A stretch of DNA of 64,000 nt, taken from assembly GCF_016026235.1 (NCBI RefSeq), contig NZ_CP065613.1; one strand, given 5' to 3'. The notes beneath the pieces were generated by a model. That model did not search any database and was not told the DNA's origin. It saw nothing but the letters and a program-made list of their open reading frames with translations. The position numbers and the translations under genes are program-made. Position 1 is the first letter of the stretch; each line of letters starts with the position of its first letter. This document shows positions 7,626 through 31,700 of the stretch, piece by piece. This stretch comes from Escherichia coli (GTDB lineage: Bacteria > Pseudomonadota > Gammaproteobacteria > Enterobacterales > Enterobacteriaceae).

Positions 7626-8372
7626 ATGAAAAATATTGCGACAGGAGGCGTTCTGGAGCGTATCCGCAGACTGACCCCACCACATGTAACCGCCCCATTC
7701 AGAACGGTTGCGGAGTGGCGCGAGTGGCAACTTGCTGAAGGCCAGAAACGTTGCGAGGAGATCAACCGCCTGAATCGTCAGTTGCGGGTGGAAAAAATCC
7801 TGAACCGCTCCGGCATCCAGCCGTTGCACCGGAAGTGTTCGTTTGCGAATTACCGGGCGCAGAACGACGGTCAGCGACATGCACTGAGTCAGGCGAAATC
7901 CATAGCTGACGAACTGATGACAGGCTGTACGAATTTTGTGTTCAGCGGTAAGCCCGGCACCGGAAAAAATCATCTTGCAGCCGCGATTGGCAACCGGCTG
8001 ATGGCGAAGGGGCGTAGCGTGATTATCGTCACCGTGTCCGATGTCATGAGCGTGTTGCATGAGAGCTACGACAACGGCAAATCCGGTGAAAAATTTTTAC
8101 AGGAGCTTTGTGGTGTTGACCTGCTGGTCCTGGATGAAATTGGCATGCAGCGGGATACGAAAAACGAGCAGGTGGTACTGAACCAGATTGTTGATCGCCG
8201 GACGGCATCGTTACGCGGTGTGGGGATGCTGACAAATATTAACCATGCAGCGATGAATACACTTCTCGGCGAGCGGGTGATGGATCGCATGGTCATGAAC
8301 GGCGGGCGCTGGGTGAATTTTAACTGGGAGAGCTGGCGTCCGAATGTTAGCCATTCGAGGGTTGTTAAGTAG
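7626..8372 (+). CDS. DnaC-like helicase loader (IstB-like AAA+ ATPase)
   Basis: Walker A GKPGTGKNHLAAAIG, Walker B LLVLDEIG; follows initiator gene. Confidence 0.75.
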   Translation: MKNIATGGVLERIRRLTPPHVTAPFRTVAEWREWQLAEGQKRCEEINRLNRQLRVEKILNRSGIQPLHRKCSFANYRAQNDGQRHALSQAKSIADELMTGCTNFVFSGKPGTGKNHLAAAIGNRLMAKGRSVIIVTVSDVMSVLHESYDNGKSGEKFLQELCGVDLLVLDEIGMQRDTKNEQVVLNQIVDRRTASLRGVGMLTNINHAAMNTLLGERVMDRMVMNGGRWVNFNWESWRPNVSHSRVVK

Positions 8373-8386
8373 TTTCAGGAGGATTT

Positions 8387-8809
8387 ATGGCGAAACCTTT
8401 TACTCCCGAACAGCGGGAAGAACTGAAGACGCGAATTGTGGAACTCGTGCATCAGGACGGTCGGGTCACGATTCGGCAGTTGTCAGATGAAACAGGTATC
8501 AGTCGTGCGTCTGTCGGTCGCTTATGCATGGAACTGGTCGCAAGTGGTGATGTATATAATTCTGGCTACGGGGTATTTCCCTCTGAACAGGCTCATAAAG
8601 ACTGGCAAAACGCCCGCAAAAAGCTATCGAGGGTAAAGGTGAAGAAACCGGTTGTGGTTGATCCTGACCTTATCTGGTCATTACCAGACGGAGAAATACG
8701 CCGCTACGACAGGCGCCTGAATATAATCTGTCGCGAGTGCCGGAAGAGCGAAGCTATGCAGCGCGTGCTGGCGTTTTATCAGGGGAAATTTCAGGAGGCG
8801 GTACTGTGA
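8387..8809 (+). CDS. hypothetical prophage protein (possible winged-helix)
   Basis: 140-aa ORF directly after dnaC-like gene. Confidence 0.45.
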   Translation: MAKPFTPEQREELKTRIVELVHQDGRVTIRQLSDETGISRASVGRLCMELVASGDVYNSGYGVFPSEQAHKDWQNARKKLSRVKVKKPVVVDPDLIWSLPDGEIRRYDRRLNIICRECRKSEAMQRVLAFYQGKFQEAVL

Positions 8810-8852
8810 GTAAAATTAGCTATGAAGTGGTCAACAAAAACTGGCCACCGAG

Positions 8853-10000
<1,148 letters not shown>

Positions 10001-10119
10001 TATGGCACCTGTGTTGTTCTGAGGTGAGCATATCACCTCTGTTCAGGTGGCCAAATTCAGTAAACCACTTCACTATCAGGCTTCAATTACCGCTGGTATT
10101 CGCATCAAAGGAGAGGAGC

Positions 10120-10476
10120 ATGGAAATAAAACCAGAAGATGAGTTAAGCAATATCGTTTTATTTCCGGTAAAAGAGGATGACCCACGTAATCAGGTTAAT
10201 TTTCTTTATGAACCATCGGAAAGACCATATTGCCATCACGCCTCTGTCCGGGTTGACGAAAAAGAGCGTCAGGTCCGCTGTAAAATCTGCGGTGCGGTTG
10301 TGGAGCCGTTTGACTGGATGCTCTCTGTGGCAAAAAGAGAAACCAGACTGGCAGATGATGTAAGGCTATTGCGCCAGGAGGAACAGGAAAGGCGGAGAAA
10401 TATAGAAAAGCTGATACAGATTGAGCGTAACGCGAAAGCGCGGATACGCAGGGCGACAAAATCCAGAACTGAATAA
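10120..10476 (+). CDS. hypothetical protein with Cys-rich segment and basic coiled-coil tail
   Basis: ATG at 10120 after AAAGGAGAGGAG; 118 aa. Confidence 0.5.
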   Translation: MEIKPEDELSNIVLFPVKEDDPRNQVNFLYEPSERPYCHHASVRVDEKERQVRCKICGAVVEPFDWMLSVAKRETRLADDVRLLRQEEQERRRNIEKLIQIERNAKARIRRATKSRTE

Positions 10477-10568
10477 TTAAATTTAGCACTGTTAAAAATT
10501 TAATCCTTAACCGGAGGGATTTCTGCACCCTCAAATCATCAGGAGACCGCCCGAAAGGGCGGTAATGA

Positions 10569-10787
10569 ATGGTTACATTATTTAGAAAAAAATATCCGCG
10601 AAAGAGTAGAACAACAGAATTCCTGTTTCTCATTCTGTTTATCGTGTTGATGACACCGATATCCCCACTAATTTTTGTCTGGATAATCGGAAAAATAATT
10701 GAGCCAGTTATTGAATTGTATAACGACGTGGTATGGGCGTCATTCAACACACTGCACAATAAAATTAATCCGTATAAGGAAAGCTGA
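10569..10787 (+). CDS. hypothetical small membrane protein
   Basis: 72-aa ORF with a hydrophobic core (two predicted transmembrane segments). Confidence 0.4.
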   Translation: MVTLFRKKYPRKSRTTEFLFLILFIVLMTPISPLIFVWIIGKIIEPVIELYNDVVWASFNTLHNKINPYKES

Positions 10788-10788
10788 T

Positions 10789-11154
10789 ATGGCACTGACG
10801 AAAAAACAACGTGCAGAACTGCGCATGAAGTTCGGTGGTCGCTGCGCTTATTGCGGCTGCGAACTTGGCGAAAAGTGGCATGCAGACCATGTAAAACCGG
10901 TCATTCGTTTTGATGGAAATATGCTTCACCAGGAACGTGACGATATATCCAACATGGTACCAGCATGCCACCCATGCAATCTGCACAAGCATTGCAGTAG
11001 CCTGGAAGATTATCGACGAATTATCAGTGATGGTCGTCGTGAATTCCTTGCGTCCGGGAAAGGCAAAGCGCTGGTTCGTATGGGATTGGTTGAAATGAAA
11101 TCTGACCCGGTTGTGTTCTGGTTTGAAAAATATCAAGAAGGGGCTACGGCATGA
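10789..11154 (+). CDS. HNH endonuclease
   Basis: CAYCGCEL...HADHVKP...CHPCNLHKH HNH motif; ATG at 10789 after TAAGGAAAG. Confidence 0.7.
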   Translation: MALTKKQRAELRMKFGGRCAYCGCELGEKWHADHVKPVIRFDGNMLHQERDDISNMVPACHPCNLHKHCSSLEDYRRIISDGRREFLASGKGKALVRMGLVEMKSDPVVFWFEKYQEGATA

Positions 11155-11816
11155 CCACTATTACCAAAGAGCGACTGCAATGGCTGGCTAACATTTCTGG
11201 CCGCGATGATATTGACGATATAGACGGCGGTGAAATTCGTGAACTGGCGCTTATCGCTCTGGCATCACTGGAAGCAGAGCCTGTAGCGGAATGCATTGTT
11301 GAAGATGGGGGCATGTGTATTGACGGGTTCGGTGAGTATGTGGGTCACTCGCTGCCTGATGGAATGCATGAGCTTTATGCTGCCCCGCGAATGCGACAAC
11401 CTGATGGATGGAAAGCCGTAGCTGTAGCGTGGAAGGTGACGTTTACTCAAGTTGACCAGGAATCTAATACGTTCACTGCTATATATTTTGACAAAGCGGA
11501 AGTTGAGCGTTGGGTACGACTGCATAAAGCATGTGATTTTCGGGCAGATATAACACCGCTTTACGCAGCGCCGGCAGTGCCGGTTGCAGTAAACGACGAC
11601 ATGGCTTACGCATTCCATCACGCACTGTCAGATTCATCGCTTGGCTCTGATGAAATCGAAGAAATTAAAACCGGTTTGCGTGCTGCCTTTGCCAACGTCA
11701 CTATCCAACCAGAGCCGATAGTGCCGGATGAAATCGGGCCAAACGATAGTAATACGTTTGATTATGTTGATGGCTGGAACGCCTGCCGCGCTGCCATGCT
11801 TAAGGGAGATAAATAA
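11151..11816 (+). CDS. hypothetical prophage protein
   Basis: 221-aa ORF, start overlaps HNH stop. Confidence 0.5.
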   Translation: MTTITKERLQWLANISGRDDIDDIDGGEIRELALIALASLEAEPVAECIVEDGGMCIDGFGEYVGHSLPDGMHELYAAPRMRQPDGWKAVAVAWKVTFTQVDQESNTFTAIYFDKAEVERWVRLHKACDFRADITPLYAAPAVPVAVNDDMAYAFHHALSDSSLGSDEIEEIKTGLRAAFANVTIQPEPIVPDEIGPNDSNTFDYVDGWNACRAAMLKGDK

Positions 11817-12181
11817 TGATTAATCGAACCAAACTGGAGCACATTCTCGAATATGCCAGGCAGCAGAAATGTATTGGGCAACTTTGTAAAATTCCACCAG
11901 GAGATATGGTTGAAATCGTGGAAATGGCCATGCGTAAGGCTGGCAACTCTCCGGTAACTCCGGCTGGCTGGATAAGCTGTAGTGATGCAGTTCCTGCTGA
12001 ATATTGCGATGTGATTCTTCTCGATGATCTCGGGAATGTATTCCCCGGTTCCTGGGATAAGGTTTTTTGCCCCACTCGTGGCGGGAATAAGATGGCTTTT
12101 GTGGACAAAGACGGCGTTGAAGTAGAGAGCTCAACTCACTGGATGCCGCTACCGGAACCACCGCAGGAGGTGAATCAATGA
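11816..12181 (+). CDS. DUF551-like prophage protein
   Basis: C-terminal FVDKDGVEVESSTHWMPLPEPP resembles DUF551. Confidence 0.55.
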   Translation: MINRTKLEHILEYARQQKCIGQLCKIPPGDMVEIVEMAMRKAGNSPVTPAGWISCSDAVPAEYCDVILLDDLGNVFPGSWDKVFCPTRGGNKMAFVDKDGVEVESSTHWMPLPEPPQEVNQ

Positions 12182-12261
12182 CCTGGCCTGAGGCATTCAC
12201 CACGGTAGGAATTGCGATGGCGGTGGCGCTGGTGGTGTATTCGATTTGCCGTTGGGGTTAA
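12178..12261 (+). CDS. possible 27-aa hydrophobic peptide
   Basis: ATGA overlap with upstream stop; MTWPEAFTTVGIAMAVALVVYSICRWG; directly followed by a terminator. Confidence 0.25.
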   Translation: MTWPEAFTTVGIAMAVALVVYSICRWG

Positions 12262-12266
12262 CAAAC

Positions 12267-12298
12267 AAAAACCCCGGATTGATGGTCCGGGGTTTTTG
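12267..12298 (+). terminator. Rho-independent terminator
   Basis: CCCCGGA-TTGATGG-TCCGGGG hairpin followed by TTTTT. Confidence 0.6.
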
Positions 12299-12479
12299 AA
12301 GGAAACAAAACAGAAACAGCAATTGCCGTTACCTGTTGTTACCATGGCAAGTAAACGTATCTCAGGCGAGCGCATTGCGCCGTTCTGACGCAGATAAACT
12401 AGCCTGGATAGATGGTGCTGGCAATAAAAAATAGCGTTTTCTTATCGGTGTCGGTAAGATTGCTGCGGGTGCTTGAGGC

Positions 12480-12635
12480 TGTCTGCCTCGGGCATGTCAC
12501 TGTAAGGCAGACAGAGAAAAGCCCCAGTTAACATTACGCGTCCTGCAAGACGCTTAACATTAATCTGAGGCCCAATCTATGTCTCACAAATGTAGGTTAG
12601 CCTCTTACGTGCCGAAAGGCAAGGAGAAGCAGGCT
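12480..12635. promoter_or_regulatory. hok mRNA leader with stem-loops; expected location of sok antisense RNA
   Basis: Inverted repeat GTCTGCCT...AGGCAGAC (12481-12512); 9-bp hairpin GGCGGGAGA-GTAA-TCTCCCGCC downstream at 12800-12822. Confidence 0.35.
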
Positions 12636-12791
12636 ATGAAGCAGCAAAAGGCGATGTTAATCGCCCTGATCGTCATCTGTTTAACCGTCATTGTGACGGC
12701 ACTGGTAACGAGGAAAGACCTCTGCGAGGTACGAATCCGAACCGGCCAGACGGAGGTCGCTGTCTTCGTAGACTACGAATCTAGAGAGTAA
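12579..12791 (+). CDS. mok: mok-like in-frame extended reading frame overlapping hok
   Basis: 70-aa ORF ending at the hok stop, as MokC extends HokC in E. coli. Confidence 0.4.
   Translation: MSHKCRLASYVPKGKEKQAMKQQKAMLIALIVICLTVIVTALVTRKDLCEVRIRTGQTEVAVFVDYESRE
12636..12791 (+). CDS. hok: Hok/Gef-family type I toxin
   Basis: MKQQKAMLIALIVICLTVIVTALVTRKDLCEVRIRTGQTEVAVF is near-identical in pattern to HokD/RelF; AAGGAG Shine-Dalgarno. Confidence 0.8.
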   Translation: MKQQKAMLIALIVICLTVIVTALVTRKDLCEVRIRTGQTEVAVFVDYESRE

Positions 12792-13069
12792 GAGTGACCA
12801 GGCGGGAGAGTAATCTCCCGCCACCTTTGATGTGTCAGGCATCCTCAACGCACCCGCACTTAACCCGTTTCGGCGGTTTTTTTTGTTGCGTGCTGAATAC
12901 GCAGGGTGAAAAATAACCATATATTTGATTATATACACAACAAAAAATAAAAGTCATTGTACTTGCACATTAAACAATCAAATATACGGCGTGAAATAAA
13001 TGTTTTTCAGATTAATATTTTTGTCTCTATGTGGATATAACCGTTTGTACTTATAAACCTGGAGGCATC

Positions 13070-13282
13070 GTGGAAAAAATAAAGAAACTATTTAGTAGCA
13101 AATACGCAGTCATACGTCGTGATGACCTGTCAGTTATAGTCGAAATGGATTACTTCCCTGAAACCCCAAAATCAATAATGTATCGTAATGGTCGAAAGGC
13201 AATTTTTTTACCGATGAGGGTAAGTGACATTATGGGAAATGATAAACTGCTGGATGAATTGCGAGTCAGAGCATCCTGTTAG
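13070..13282 (+). CDS. hypothetical protein
   Basis: GTG at 13070 preceded by GGAGG; track start 13031 lacks a ribosome-binding site. Confidence 0.4.
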   Translation: MEKIKKLFSSKYAVIRRDDLSVIVEMDYFPETPKSIMYRNGRKAIFLPMRVSDIMGNDKLLDELRVRASC

Positions 13283-13353
13283 TATTGGCATTAATTCTGG
13301 TATACTACATAACGGGCTGAACACCCATTCTACTGCGCCAGCGGAGAACTACG

Positions 13354-13953
13354 ATGGCGCATATACAACTGGTCAAACAAACCTCTTCCGGATTACTTCT
13401 CCCGGCGACGCCGGAGAGTTGCGATTTTTTGCATCAAATCAAAATAGGTGAGTGGATACACGCAGACTTTAAGCGTGTGCGTAACTACGCATTCCACAAG
13501 CGTTTTTTCAAACTCCTGCAACTGGGATTTGATTACTGGACTCCGGTCGGTGGGGCGATCACGCCTCGCGAACGAAAACTGGTATCAGGCTTCGTTGATT
13601 ACCTGTGCGAATCAGTAGGTCGGGAACACACTCCAGCCCTGAGTGATGCCGCAGAGCAATACCTTAATACAGTTGCGACATGCAGAACCCGGGATACGGC
13701 ATTGCTAAAGTCGTTTGACGCTTTCCGCGAGTGGGTAACCATTCAGGCCGGATTTTACACCGAGCATATTTATCCTGATGGTAGTCGTGGGCGCAGGGCA
13801 AAATCTATCGCATTTGCGAACATGGACGAAACCGAGTTTCAGCAGGTTTATAAATCTGTACTGAATGTGCTGTGGAACTGGATCCTGTTCCGTAAATTTT
13901 CCTCTCCGGAACAAGTCGAAAATGTGGCCGCGCAGCTACTGGAGTTTGCGTAA
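13354..13953 (+). CDS. DUF1367-like lambdoid prophage protein
   Basis: 199-aa ORF in the nin-like region upstream of Q. Confidence 0.5.
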   Translation: MAHIQLVKQTSSGLLLPATPESCDFLHQIKIGEWIHADFKRVRNYAFHKRFFKLLQLGFDYWTPVGGAITPRERKLVSGFVDYLCESVGREHTPALSDAAEQYLNTVATCRTRDTALLKSFDAFREWVTIQAGFYTEHIYPDGSRGRRAKSIAFANMDETEFQQVYKSVLNVLWNWILFRKFSSPEQVENVAAQLLEFA

Positions 13954-14243
13954 TGGTGGATTTACGTAAAGCGGCGCGGGGGCAGATGTGCACCGTCAGA
14001 ATTCCTGGCTACTGCAATCACGATCCGGAAACGTCTGTGCTGGCGCATTACCGACTGGCGGGAACGTGCGGAACAGCGACAAAACCACACGATATGCAGG
14101 CGGCGATTGCCTGTAGCTCATGCCACGATTTAATCGACGGGCGGGTAAAAACAAGCGATTACACCAAAGAAGAATTACGCCTGATACATGCAGAAGGTGT
14201 TTTTCGCACGCAAGAAATCTGGAGAAAGGAAGGTTATTTATGA
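13953..14243 (+). CDS. Zinc-binding prophage protein (DUF1364-like)
   Basis: Cys/His pattern C..C...CSSCH; translationally coupled to neighbours. Confidence 0.45.
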   Translation: MVDLRKAARGQMCTVRIPGYCNHDPETSVLAHYRLAGTCGTATKPHDMQAAIACSSCHDLIDGRVKTSDYTKEELRLIHAEGVFRTQEIWRKEGYL

Positions 14244-27239: not shown

Positions 27240-27980
27240 ATGACCACACCAAATCCACTGGCAAAAACGAAAGGTGCGGGAACGACGTTCTGGATGTACA
27301 CCGGCAAGGGCGATGCGTTTGCGAACCCTTTGTCGGACACTGACTGGCTGCGTCTTGCGATGGTGAAGGATCTGCAACCTGGCGAAATGACCGCTGATGC
27401 AGAAGATGACACTTATCTCGATGATGAAGATGCAGACTGGAAAACGACAACCCAGGGGCAGAAATCCGTCGGTGATACTTTGGCGACGCTGGCCTGGCGT
27501 CCGGGTGACAGCGGGCAGAAAAAACTGGTTCAGTTGTTCGATTCCGGTGAAGTCTGCGCGTTTCGTATCAAATACCCCAACGGTACGGTTGATGTTTTCC
27601 GTGGCTGGCTGAGTTCACTGGGTAAAACCATTACCTCAAAAGAGGTGATGACCCGTACTGTAAAAATCAGCGGTGTGGGGCGTCCGTATCTGGCAGAGGA
27701 GGGCGCTGAAACCGTGGGTGTTACCGGACTGACGGTGGCACCGGCATCTGTCAGTGTCAAAGCGGGAGCAACCACCACACTGACCTTTACAGTAAAACCT
27801 GACGGGGCCAGTGACAAAGCGATCAGTGTGCATTCGTCAGATCCTCAGACTGCTTCGGTGACCCTGAGCGGGCTTGTGGCCACGGTGAAAGGCGTGAAGC
27901 AGGGCAGTGTCAGCATCGTGGGCATGACCTCTGACGGAGAGTTTGTGGCAGTGGCTGCGGTGACCGTCAGCGCACCATAA
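27240..27980 (+). CDS. Major tail protein V with C-terminal Ig-like domain
   Basis: 246 aa as lambda gpV; AAGGAGGTG Shine-Dalgarno; C-terminal Big_2-like repeat. Confidence 0.8.
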   Translation: MTTPNPLAKTKGAGTTFWMYTGKGDAFANPLSDTDWLRLAMVKDLQPGEMTADAEDDTYLDDEDADWKTTTQGQKSVGDTLATLAWRPGDSGQKKLVQLFDSGEVCAFRIKYPNGTVDVFRGWLSSLGKTITSKEVMTRTVKISGVGRPYLAEEGAETVGVTGLTVAPASVSVKAGATTTLTFTVKPDGASDKAISVHSSDPQTASVTLSGLVATVKGVKQGSVSIVGMTSDGEFVAVAAVTVSAP

Positions 27981-28035
27981 CAGGACGATACTCATCATTG
28001 CCCCGGTTATCCGGGGCTTTTTGCATCCGGAGAAC

Positions 28036-28425
28036 ATGATGTTTCTGAAACAGGATACGTTTAATTATGAAAAACAGTCCGTGGTGCTCAGTGAGCTGTC
28101 CGGGCTGCAGAGAATTGAATATCTGACGTTTGTTCAGCAGCGAACGGCAAAGTTTGATGCACAGGAGGGAGAACTGCCGGAGGCTGAACGACAGATTGCT
28201 TTTCTGCGTATGGGAATGGATATCAATGCCTGGCTGGTTTCCCGCTCACTGTGGAATGCTGAGCAGTCTCAGGATGTTGAGACGCTTTGCGCATCCATTA
28301 TGACAACATGGTCGTATGATGCGCTGGGCGCGGGGGCGGAGAGGGTTCTGTCGCTGAGCGGTATGGGGACCATTGAGAATGCCGGGGATGATGATCATGA
28401 GGCGCTGACGCCGGAAAAGTCCTGA
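28036..28425 (+). CDS. Tail assembly chaperone G
   Basis: MFLKQ...LSELSGLQRIEYL resembles lambda gpG. Confidence 0.7.
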   Translation: MMFLKQDTFNYEKQSVVLSELSGLQRIEYLTFVQQRTAKFDAQEGELPEAERQIAFLRMGMDINAWLVSRSLWNAEQSQDVETLCASIMTTWSYDALGAGAERVLSLSGMGTIENAGDDDHEALTPEKS

Positions 28426-28763
28426 CGCGGGAAATGCAGTTTGTCATGCGGCTTGCCCGGGAGTTCCGGCGGGCAGACTGGCGGCGGATGCTGTCGGAAA
28501 TGTCGGCCACTGAGCTTGGTGAGTGGGGCGATTATTTCCGGATGCAGAGCTTCAGTGATGTGTGGATGGATGCGCAGTTTGCCTCGCTGAAGGCATTGAT
28601 CGTGAGAATGGTGTCCGGCAGCAGCGATGCTGCGGTGGCTGATTTCAGCCTTTTACCGGAAGAGAACGGGATACCGGAGCGAACGGACGAAGAACTGATG
28701 CATCTTGGGGAAGGTATTTCCGGAGGTGTGCGTTATGGACCAGATAGCCAACCTGGTCATTGA
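28410..28763 (+). CDS. T-frame of tail assembly chaperone GT (expressed as G-T fusion by -1 programmed frameshift)
   Basis: -1 frame opens at 28410 and overlaps the end of G; heptamer GGAAAAG at 28413-28419 sits where lambda has GGGAAAG. Confidence 0.55.
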   Translation, partial: AGKVLTREMQFVMRLAREFRRADWRRMLSEMSATELGEWGDYFRMQSFSDVWMDAQFASLKALIVRMVSGSSDAAVADFSLLPEENGIPERTDEELMHLGEGISGGVRYGPDSQPGH

Positions 28764-31700
28764 TTTGGGGATTGATGCGGCAGAGTTTAAAAATGAAATT
28801 CCCCGTATCAAAAACCTTCTGAATGGTGCAGCCAGCGATGCAGAACGGTCTTCTGCCCGTATGCAGCGTTTTATGGAGCGTCAGACTCAGGCCGCCCGGC
28901 AGACAACGCAGGCGGCTTCTTCGGCTGCAACAGCCGCATCCGTCCATGCGCAGACGGTGGAGAAGAACGCACAGGCTCATGAACGCATGGCCCGCGAGGT
29001 GGAGAAAACCCGCCAGCGCATGGAGGCGCTGAGCCAGAAAATGCGCGAGGAACAGGCGCAGGCCAGGGCACTGGCGGAGGCGCAGGATAAAGCGGCTGCC
29101 GCCTTTTATCGCCAGATTGACAGTGTGAAACAGGCCGGTGCGGGGCTTCAGGAATTACAGCGTATTCAGCAGCAGATCCGACAGGCCAGAAACAGTGGCG
29201 GGGTTGGTCAGCAGGATTATCTGGCGCTGATTTCGGAGATCACGGCGAAAACCCGTGCCCTGACGCAGGCAGAGGAACAGGCCACCCGGCAGAAAGCGGC
29301 GTTTATCCGCCAGCTTAAAGAGCAGGCAACCCGCCAGAATCTGTCGTCTTCTGAGTTGCTTCGCGCCAGGGCGGCTCAGCTGGGGGTAAGCAGTGCTGCA
29401 GAAGTGTATATCCGCAAAATGGAGCGGGCAGGAAAAGCCACACATTCGCTGGGGCTGAAAAGTGCGGCAGCCCGGCGGGAGCTGGGGGTGTTAATCAGTC
29501 AGATGGCGCGCGGCAATTTTGGTGCGCTGAGGGGATCCGGGATAACGCTGGCTAACCGTGCCGGATGGACAGGCGCACTGATGTCGCCGAAAGGCATGAT
29601 GACTGGCGGCGTTATTGGCGGACTTGTCGCGGCGGTCCTGGGTCTGGGTAAAGCCTGGCATGACGGCCGGAAGGAGGGCGAGGAATTTAACCGTCAGCTG
29701 GCGCTGACGGGACATTATGCCGGTGTCACTGTCGGGCAGTTGTGGAAACTCAGCCGGGCCATATCCGGGAATGGTATCACGCAACATGCGGCAGCCGGTG
29801 CGCTGGCACAGGTGGTGGGCAGTGGGGCATTTCATGGAAACGATATTGGTATGGTGGCGAAAGCTGCCGCACAGATGGAGCGATCGGTTGGCCAGTCGGT
29901 CAGCGATACCATAAATCAGTTTAAGCGGCTGAAGGATGATCCTGTAAATGCCGCGAAGGCGCTGGACAATGCGCTGCATTTTTTGACTGCCACTCAGCTT
30001 GAGCAGATACGCGTCCTTGGGGAGCAGGGGCGGTCCAGTGATGCGGCCCGGATCGCCATGTCTGCGCTGGCAGAGGAAACCGGTAAACGCACATCTGATA
30101 TTGATAATAATCTCAATGCGCTGGGTAGTACGCTGCAAACCTTGTCTGACTGGTGGAAGCAGTTCTGGGATGCGGCCATGAATATTGGTCGTGAAGACTC
30201 GCTGGATGCGCAGATTGATGCGTTACAGGAAAAAATTCAGCGCGCGAAAAAATATCCGTGGACAAACGCCTCCACACAGGTGGAGTACGATCAGCAGCGT
30301 CTTAACGATCTTCAGGAGAAAAAACGCCGGAAGGATTTGCAGGATGCAAAAGCGCAGGCAGAACGGAATTACCAGGAGCAACAGAAACGCCGGAATGCTG
30401 AAAATGCCGCGCTGAACCGGATGAATGAAACGGAAGCTGCACGACATCAGCGGGAAATTGCGCGTATTAATGCCATGCAGTACGCCGACCAGGCTGTCAG
30501 GGATGCGGCGATACAGCGTGAAAATGAACGTTACGAAAAAGCCATTAAGAAAAATACACGGGCAACCCGTAATGATGAGGCCACCCGGTTATTGCTGCAG
30601 TACAGTCAGCAGCAGGCACAGGTGGAAGGGCAGATTGCTGCTGCCAGACAGTCAGCAGGCATTGCCACTGAAAGGATGACTGAAGCGCATAAACAGCTTC
30701 TGGCCCTGCAGCAGCGCATCAGCGACCTGGGCGGGAAAAAGCTGACGGCAGATGAAAAGAGTGTGCTGGCCCGTAAGAATGAGCTGATTCAGGCGCTGAC
30801 GCTGCTGGATGTGAAACAGCAGGAGCTGCAGAAACAGACAGCGCTTAACGACCTGAGAAAAAAAACGGTTCAGCTGACCAGCCAGCTGGCAGACAAAGAA
30901 CGTGCACTGCGTGAGCAGCACAATCTGGATATTGCCACTGCAGGTATGGGGATAAGCAGCGGCAGCGCTACCAGGCACAGTTGCGCATCCGGCAGGAATA
31001 CCGGCAACAGTTGCAACAGCTTGAGAATGACAGTCGCCAGAAAGGCACTTACGGGACGGAGGACTACCGGAGGGCTGAGGAGGTGCTGAAGGGGAGCCTG
31101 AAGCGACAACTGAATGAAAACAAACGCTACTGGCAGGAACTGGAAGTGGCGCAGGGCGACTGGAAAAACGGTGCCATGCGGGCGTTTCAGAATTTTACGG
31201 CGGATGCGGATAATGCGGCGGGAACGGCAGAACAGATGTTTACAGTGGCATTCAGCAGTGCCGGTAATGCACTGGCGACATTCTGTACCACCGGTAAGCT
31301 GAATTTTAAATCCTTTACCTCTTCCCTGTTGTCAGATATGGCCAGAATTATGGCACAGATGGCCATGATGCAGGCGGTAAAGGGCGTCGGTTCTTTATTC
31401 GGCTTCACGACTAATGCTGATGGCGGTGTTTACCAGTCTGCTGATTTGAGTCGCTACAGTGGCACGGTGGTTAACCGTCCGACGTTTTTTGCTTTTGCAA
31501 AAGGCGCGGGTGTGATGGGGGAAGCGGGACCTGAAGCCATTCTGCCACTGCGTCGCGGTGCTGATGGTAAGCTGGGGGTTGTGGCGGATACTGGTGGTTC
31601 AGGCATGGTGATGTTTGCCCCGCAGTACAACATTGAGATCAATAACGATGGCACGAACGGGCAGATAGGTCCGGCTGCCCTGAAGGTGGTTTATGACCTC

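Follow-up and report, generated by a model that had tools for sequence, protein, structure and literature searches.

A six-gene cluster of a Rac-like lambdoid prophage of Escherichia coli as a probable mosaic of independent early accessory genes

Introduction

The exo-xis region found in lambdoid phages is read very early, by transcription from pL, and one article describes it as able to shift the balance between lysis and lysogeny (PMC8614690). The variable (ea) part of that region, as in L0063-L0068 of phage 933W and gp10-gp18 of phage ArgO145, and the nin region, which comprises ninB-ninI in lambda and ninA-ninZ in P22, are the closest described counterparts of the locus that is the subject of this report. 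The locus is a cluster of six open reading frames (ORFs), called O1 to O6 here, in a stretch of 64,000 nucleotides (nt) of Escherichia coli DNA (contig NZ_CP065613.1). This whole stretch is referred to as the window and all coordinates are positions in it. The window contains a Rac-like lambdoid prophage, whose early-right strand carries the cluster.

Some of the protein families concerned have been met in such regions before. DUF551, the domain found in O5, is given in two articles as the C-terminal domain of one Ea22 variant of Shiga toxin (Stx) phages (PMC8614690, PMC10834534), and the second of these and a third article place it also in YfdS of prophage CPS-53 (PMC10834534, PMC4776307). 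For the nuclease-like protein O3 there are three described points of comparison, specifically; 1) PtuB of the Septu system; 2) the HNH effectors associated with retrons (TIGR02646); and 3) small stand-alone HNH endonucleases, such as the 112-amino acid (aa) chain of PDB 4H9D.

An earlier note on this DNA had likened the six genes to the content of prophage-encoded defence or superinfection-exclusion modules. We propose a different reading, which we consider likely, namely that the Rac-like lambdoid prophage has here a mosaic string of early accessory genes that are independent of one another. The cassettes of this string would come from the pool that also fills the variable part of exo-xis (ea) in Stx phages and, in other lambdoid phages, the nin region. 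The gene families, the exact proteins and the type of region have all been catalogued or described already, and the main value of the analysis is negative and clarifying: an apparent system of a nuclease and membrane proteins would be a chance neighbourhood of freely recombining early cassettes, and thousands of genomes of E. coli and Shigella contain these cassettes.

Organisation of the cluster

The six ORFs, all on the same strand and at the positions given in the earlier note, are:

10120-10476, + strand, O1, zinc-ribbon/coiled-coil protein of 118 aa
10569-10787, + strand, O2, DUF4014 protein of 72 aa
10789-11154, + strand, O3, HNH protein of 121 aa
11151-11816, + strand, O4, Ea22-type mosaic protein of 221 aa
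11816-12181, + strand, O5, DUF551 protein of 121 aa
12178-12261, + strand, O6, hydrophobic peptide of 27 aa

The description of these ORFs as tightly packed and mostly translationally coupled holds, since four of the five junctions are coupled. O2 and O3 are separated by a spacer of 1 nt, O3 and O4 overlap by 4 nt in a shared ATGA, O4 and O5 overlap by 1 nt in a shared TAATG, and O5 and O6 overlap by 4 nt, again in a shared ATGA. The remaining junction, between O1 and O2, is a gap of 92 nt and is uncoupled. For a copy in E. coli VL40 that is 99.2% identical, RefSeq annotates the same five larger coding sequences and omits the 27-aa ORF. The exact sequences of all six proteins are already public, with Shigella sonnei, Shigella flexneri and E. 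coli as their main sources, under the names hypothetical protein, DUF4014, HNH endonuclease or DUF551, and five of the six belong to known phage families (phrog_1621, DUF4014, small HNH nuclease, Ea22-type mosaic and DUF551). Profile searches with Pfam and PADLOC, part of the check proposed in the earlier note, confirmed the DUF4014, HNH and DUF551 assignments and identified no defence system.

Independent assortment of the genes

The genes of the cluster assort independently. This can be followed in 150 related loci that were fetched from IMG/VR, using HNH or DUF4014 as the anchor, and onto which the six proteins were mapped. These loci are best matches, redundant and skewed to close relatives, and the counts taken from them illustrate a pattern and are not population frequencies. 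The full six-gene order occurs in about 17 of the 80 HNH-anchored loci, including one (L025) that has the same upstream insertion sequence (IS) as the window. The distance from O1 to the HNH gene downstream of it takes more than ten different values, and O1 is sometimes found downstream of DUF4014 instead, while O4 and O5 are usually missing or replaced. This HNH gene directly follows DUF4014 in 35 of the 80 DUF4014-anchored loci and other genes come next in the other 45, and HNH homologues with no adjoining DUF4014 are present in Raoultella, past the replication genes, and in Enterobacter, before int. An obligate DUF4014-HNH pair was considered as a candidate and rejected, as each gene is found without the other.

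The same picture is seen at the level of nucleotide homology. The ends of BLAST homology blocks cluster at gene borders, around 10070-10090, 10460-10570, 10770-10810, 11160-11170, 12170 and 12260, and although 3050 of 5426 complete E. coli genomes hold some part of the 2.3 kb, just one of them has 80% or more of it as one unbroken stretch.

Shared cassettes in the exo-xis and nin regions

Relatives of O1, DUF4014 and HNH are also found together on the other arm of lambdoid phages. In ArgO145 they are gp17, gp12 and gp11, respectively, and stand among Ead/Ea22-like genes between exo/RecT and int, in the early-left operon, and in 933W the DUF4014 gene (L0067) lies between the Ea22-like L0069 and xis. 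The cluster therefore has these three families in common with the variable exo-xis region, and it also has the same gene style, with small, overlapping and co-oriented genes, and modules that recur in Ead/Ea22-like and DUF551 proteins. It differs in its place, as the cassettes are here on the early-right arm past the replication genes and not between exo and xis. It differs too from lambda's own version of the region, whose orf60a, orf63, orf61, orf73, ea22 and ea8.5 products are all dissimilar to the cluster proteins; a tblastn comparison of the six proteins with lambda 27500-31500 gave nothing below E 0.07. Thus, the analogy with Ea22 rests on shared modules and position, and not on orthology.

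The position of the cluster is that of the nin region. Ahead of it on the + strand are cro/YdaS, YdaT, YdaU, a DnaC-like ATPase gene and, last, DUF977 (8387-8809), past it on the same strand are hok/sok, NinB/DUF1367, YbcO/DUF1364 and a DUF1133 Q-like gene, and the prophage genes for RecE and a cI-like repressor are on the - strand. The earlier placing of variable accessory cargo in a lambdoid nin-like stretch agrees with these neighbours. With lambda and P22 the cluster shares its location between the replication genes and NinB/Q, its strand and an intrinsic terminator inside, and in Serratia and Yersinia homologues of O1 adjoin NinG/NinH/RusA. However, it lies upstream of NinB and not among the classical nin genes, and searches with the cluster proteins gave no above-threshold match to any named Nin family, only a weak one of the HNH core to NinG. 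These comparisons place cassettes typical of the Stx exo-xis region in the post-replication, or nin-side, region of Rac-like prophages as well. The function of the genes described here is therefore best viewed in the light of the experiments that have been made on Ea22 and other exo-xis proteins.

Expression and the upstream insertion sequence

We hypothesise that after induction or infection the cluster is most likely read as a distal part of the early-right operon, that translation would be coupled through the stop/start overlaps, and that each product probably acts alone. A scan of the cluster for consensus matches found no sigma-70-like promoter on its + strand. In the copy studied here, upstream transcription would first have to cross, in the antisense direction, the following element:

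8823-10072, - strand, IS3-family element of 1250 bp, IS911-like, with close copies named ISEc52 in RefSeq

The earlier note had placed an IS911 at the left border of the cluster. An IS911-like element of the IS3 family is indeed found there, and what needs correcting is its extent, which is as listed, and its name, the RefSeq name of close copies being ISEc52. The element begins 14 nt past the stop of DUF977 (8809) and ends 47 nt upstream of O1, its transposase is encoded on the - strand, antisense to the early-right operon, and it is bordered by a target duplication of 3 bp, CTA, at 8820-8822 and 10073-10075. In two IS-free relatives (L049 and L033) the sequence corresponding to window position 8823 is joined straight to that of 10073, with a gap of 57 bp from DUF977 to O1. 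The IS is a clean, simple insertion without deletion, and it may be polar on all downstream genes. In VL40 the stretch from DUF977 to O1 is occupied by a DUF4406 gene and an Ead/Ea22-like gene.

An insertion at this point raises the question of whether the IS has silenced the cluster, leaving it as inert, non-functional cargo in a Shigella/E. coli prophage that is decaying. The short distance of 47 nt to O1 and the opposite orientation of the element are compatible with such silencing, the left arm of the VL40 prophage carries IS600 and pseudogenes, and the exact proteins are most abundant in the IS-rich genomes of Shigella. Nevertheless, we judge this to be very unlikely, given that the six ORFs are intact and identical, or nearly so, to the copies in the IS-free prophages, that O6 is under purifying selection across loci, as described below, and that the insertion is clean, with its target duplication and no loss of sequence.

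There are several points that weigh against a mosaic of independently acting early genes. The upstream IS may have severed the cluster from the early promoter; the timing of expression is one that we infer, and matching to a consensus is a crude way to scan for promoters; in many loci the DUF4014 and HNH genes are neighbours that have the same 1-nt spacer, and this adjacency could mark a functional pair instead of recent common descent; the related loci on which assortment was followed have the redundancy and the bias to close relatives stated above; and the six proteins have no resemblance to the exo-xis proteins of lambda itself.

O1, O4 and O5 as modular proteins

Within the proposed mosaic, O1, O4 and O5 would be Ea22-type modular proteins that combine a zinc-ribbon/coiled-coil part, C-terminal domain modules and DUF551, and, by analogy with Ea22 and the exo-xis region, they may tune the lysis-lysogeny decision or host physiology via protein contacts. 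What the data show is the structure and position of the genes, their family membership, their separate assortment and the purifying selection that acts on O6; these and the other biochemical roles suggested in this report are ones that we infer from domain content and the exo-xis literature.

O4 was described in the earlier note as an unknown protein of 221 aa. It does lack a Pfam match, even at E<=10, and this includes the Ead_Ea22 coiled-coil signature PF13935 that sets the Ea22 family apart from it, but it can now be placed as an Ea22-type mosaic protein by the modules that it has in common with PF13935 proteins. Pieces of O4 are shared with more than 3000 database proteins, many of which carry DUF551, Ead_Ea22 or DUF550. 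The protein consists of three modules, at residues 1-48, 49-134 and 135-221, and contains the motif LYAAP at about residues 75-79 and again at about 137-141. P0236, an Ea22-like protein that bears PF13935, is 73-84% identical to O4 over O4 residues 41-79 and 137-217, and in P0236 and a second Ea22-like protein, P0247, the second and last O4 modules are joined directly at one LYAAP. It follows that the segment at residues 80-136 of O4, 57 residues long, is an insert with a LYAAP on either side, and this segment is missing from the Ea22-like relatives. LYAAP is a marker of module junctions in this hyper-mosaic family of proteins, and the motif may be a preferred recombination joint.

O5 contains a full-length DUF551 domain (PF04448, E 4.8e-19, residues 51-117 against 1-68 of the 68 model positions), preceded by an N-terminal helical module that corresponds to phrog_24004. 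In its AlphaFold model, which has a predicted local distance difference test score (pLDDT) of 71.3, the DUF551 part forms a small four-stranded beta domain. A Foldseek comparison of this model with the PDB gave no significant match, the best being Tudor/SH3-like barrels at E 0.17 and above, which were not used to assign a function, and a sequence search against solved structures found nothing for O5. Pfam finds PF13935 neither in O5 nor in O1; in some proteins, however, the DUF551 module is fused to PF13935.

O1 belongs to phrog_1621 (3e-56) and has a weak Pfam match to the TFIIB-type zinc ribbon. Its architecture is a disordered N-terminus, a zinc ribbon of the form CxH...CxxC and a long basic helix. 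In an alignment of 27 O1 homologues, from the genera Escherichia, Klebsiella, Kluyvera, Salmonella, Yokenella, Serratia, Erwinia, Pluralibacter and Yersinia, the residues C38, H40, C54 and C57 are conserved and the basic helix, LRxEExxRRxNIEKLIQIERNAKARIRR, is almost invariant. The AlphaFold model (pLDDT 72.5) consists of a beta-hairpin knuckle followed by a single long helix, residues 63-117. Foldseek found no significant match for this model in the PDB; the best was a TFIIB zinc ribbon, at E 0.28, and it was not used to assign a function. Like DUF551, the O1 module occurs as a fusion, being joined to the Ead/Ea22 N-terminus (PF13935) in some E. coli proteins (P0077 and P0117). In prophages of Serratia and Yersinia, O1 homologues lie between NinG/NinH/RusA and the late-gene region, and in those of Yersinia a recognisable Q-type antiterminator follows. 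The O1 family appears to be an unnamed family of nin-region proteins.

As a side observation, the slot of the O1 family in the Serratia and Yersinia prophages (L163-L166) is fixed, directly past NinG/NinH/RusA.

O3 and the question of a defence system

O3 belongs to the HNH superfamily (PF01844, Pfam E 3.6e-6; phrog_2118, 8.8e-57). Its motif, as read from the sequence, is complete, with C19xxC22, D33-H34, N55, C60xxC63-N64 and H66/H68, and with all motif residues present O3 is predicted to be a minimal zinc-finger HNH endonuclease of the beta-beta-alpha-metal type. In the proposed mosaic it would be a small DNA endonuclease, catalytically complete by motif. The closest solved chain is that of the small HNH endonuclease 4H9D, which is similar in size (112 aa) and in its CxxC...DH...N...CxxCN motif, although the similarity is marginal (E 0.058). 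Weak profile matches were also obtained to NinG (E 0.003, HNH core) and to endonuclease VII.

A nuclease of this kind raises the possibility of an undescribed prophage module for defence or superinfection exclusion, formed by the whole cluster or by a core such as DUF4014 and HNH, alone or together with the small peptides. In it, a membrane protein would sense or position and the HNH protein would cut incoming DNA. Defence genes are known to reside in the accessory regions of prophages, the cluster contains two small hydrophobic proteins besides a complete HNH motif, and DUF4014 is directly upstream of the HNH gene in most HNH-anchored loci. PADLOC also returned weak matches for O3, to PtuB (31.6 bits, model positions 20-88 of 227) and to PDC-M01B (23.9 bits). 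These are partial matches, however, confined to the HNH domain, and PADLOC found nothing for O1, O2, O5 and O6 and an insignificant match for O4. O3 shares with Septu PtuB and with the retron-associated effectors the common core of HNH zinc-finger nucleases, but it is half as long as PtuB, and no PtuA-like ATPase is encoded among the six ORFs, the nearest ATPase being the DnaC-like replication protein across the IS. In the case of the retron-associated family, the NCBIfam model TIGR02646 scored 21.8 bits on O3 against a cut-off of 52.15, Rfam gave no match to a retron RNA in 8000-14000, and neither a reverse transcriptase nor a partner non-coding RNA was found at the cluster. The NCBIfam IscB model was likewise far below its cut-off on O3. 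The statement in the earlier note that nothing here matches a nameable system stands.

Each test of membership in a defence system that was run came out negative. In addition, DUF4014 lacks this HNH gene in the 45 loci mentioned above, the HNH gene lacks DUF4014 in the Raoultella and Enterobacter prophages, and the genes form part of early lytic operons on one or the other arm of lambdoid phages, with no promoter of their own detected in the consensus scan. The suggestion that the six genes are a defence or superinfection-exclusion module is not borne out by these data, which comprise generic HNH matches in PADLOC, sub-threshold NCBIfam scores, separate assortment and a place in an early lytic operon, and we regard it as improbable.

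The patchy distribution of O3 can be looked at in another way, as that of a free-standing, selfish HNH endonuclease of the homing type, whose mobility would explain that distribution and part of the mosaicism. It is consistent with homing that O3 is 96-100% identical across loci with different flanks, that one cluster of O3 sequences at 90% spans E. coli, Salmonella, Citrobacter, Raoultella and Enterobacter, and that homology blocks stop exactly at the borders of O3. However, O1 and O6 are equally conserved and have equally sharp borders, and the pattern is thus not specific to the nuclease. Moreover, about 150 redundant loci contain no clean presence and absence of HNH between otherwise identical neighbours, and where HNH is missing past DUF4014 a different gene fills the slot. 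We think homing improbable as the origin of the pattern.

O6, the terminator and hok/sok

O6 is a hydrophobic peptide of 27 aa, MTWPEAFTTVGIAMAVALVVYSICRWG, with a single helix, and together with O2 it would be a small inner-membrane protein of the proposed mosaic. Its 84-bp block is a discrete unit of homology, as judged from the ends of BLAST blocks, and 1289 of 5426 complete E. coli genomes (24%) contain it, in up to five matching places per genome. Among the copies recovered there are 32 distinct nucleotide variants of O6, 14 of which encode the identical peptide, and the amino-acid changes seen are conservative (V/I, M/L, A/V and F/L). At least three unrelated genes precede it, every time with a GGAGG site and an ATG that abuts or overlaps the upstream stop, and at least five different sequences follow it. 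O6 is clearly a genuine small gene under purifying selection at the protein level.

Two further features lie at the right-hand end of the cluster:

12266-12298, both strands, terminator-like hairpin
12467-12791, + strand, hok/sok type I toxin-antitoxin locus (Rfam sok, 118 bits), the usual right-hand neighbour of O6

The hairpin has a folding energy of -23 kcal/mol on the + strand (z -4.8), a value reached by none of 200 shuffles, and of -20.7 kcal/mol on the - strand. It agrees with the strong terminator that had been noted at the cluster end, and with an A-run and a T-run at its flanks it looks like a bidirectional intrinsic terminator. The segment is variable among relatives. Hok/sok is alone above threshold in an Rfam scan of 8000-14000, and 68 of 98 copies of O6 have, 134-434 nt downstream, the start of a hok/mok reading frame.

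Two observations can be added on this arrangement. O6 with hok/sok forms a frequent right-hand boundary of the variable region, and in early-left (exo-xis) contexts O6 occurs without hok.

Being hydrophobic and 27 aa long, O6 could be thought of as a type I toxin similar to Hok, Ibs or TisB. Rfam gave no known antisense RNA family over O6 and only sub-threshold matches on the terminator, and O6 is translationally coupled to the upstream gene, unlike a typical toxin of this type. We consider it unlikely that a subset of the genes, of which DUF4014 with HNH, or O6, would be the likeliest, is an undescribed exclusion or abortive module expressed from the prophage. If it were so, O6 in particular could be a new small membrane effector that roughly one complete E. 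coli genome in four carries.

O2 and its start

O2 is a full-length DUF4014 protein (PF13198, E 1.4e-25, residues 1-71 against positions 1-71 of the 72-position model), belongs to phrog_1832 and is a homologue of L0067 of 933W. It has a basic N-terminus and a hydrophobic core segment. Two labels attached to DUF4014, 'released from the phage upon host infection' in PHROGs and 'putative sugar acetyl transferase inhibitor' in GenBank KY914478 (locus L154, 3253-3471), are unsupported, no paper behind them having been found, and they were ignored; literature searches on DUF4014, the RefSeq accessions and the PHROG identifiers likewise found no paper.

Ahead of the start codon of O2 there are two elements:

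10541-10545, + strand, Shine-Dalgarno (SD) sequence AGGAG, 23 nt from the O2 start codon (10569)
10546-10563, + strand, 7-bp GNRA hairpin, ACCGCCC-GAAA-GGGCGGT, between the SD sequence and the start codon

Taken together (10541-10563), they fold at -17.3 kcal/mol (z -4.1). The order of SD sequence, hairpin and AUG is kept upstream of DUF4014 genes that have two different sequences further upstream, and DUF4014 genes of a second class have instead an SD sequence of the ordinary kind, at close spacing. It is possible that the leader of O2 is a split ribosome-binding site that is brought together by the hairpin. Split ribosome-binding sites are known from T4, and the arrangement at O2 resembles them.

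Two minor points concern annotation. The O6 gene is unannotated in both RefSeq records inspected, those of VL40 and of E. coli S6, and in the latter it lies just upstream of DUF4222, xis and int, a third instance, after ArgO145 and 933W, of a gene of the cluster in a pL-side exo-xis region. The conserved SD-hairpin-AUG start of DUF4014 genes, which is a point of similar weight, should be respected by gene finders and in expression constructs.

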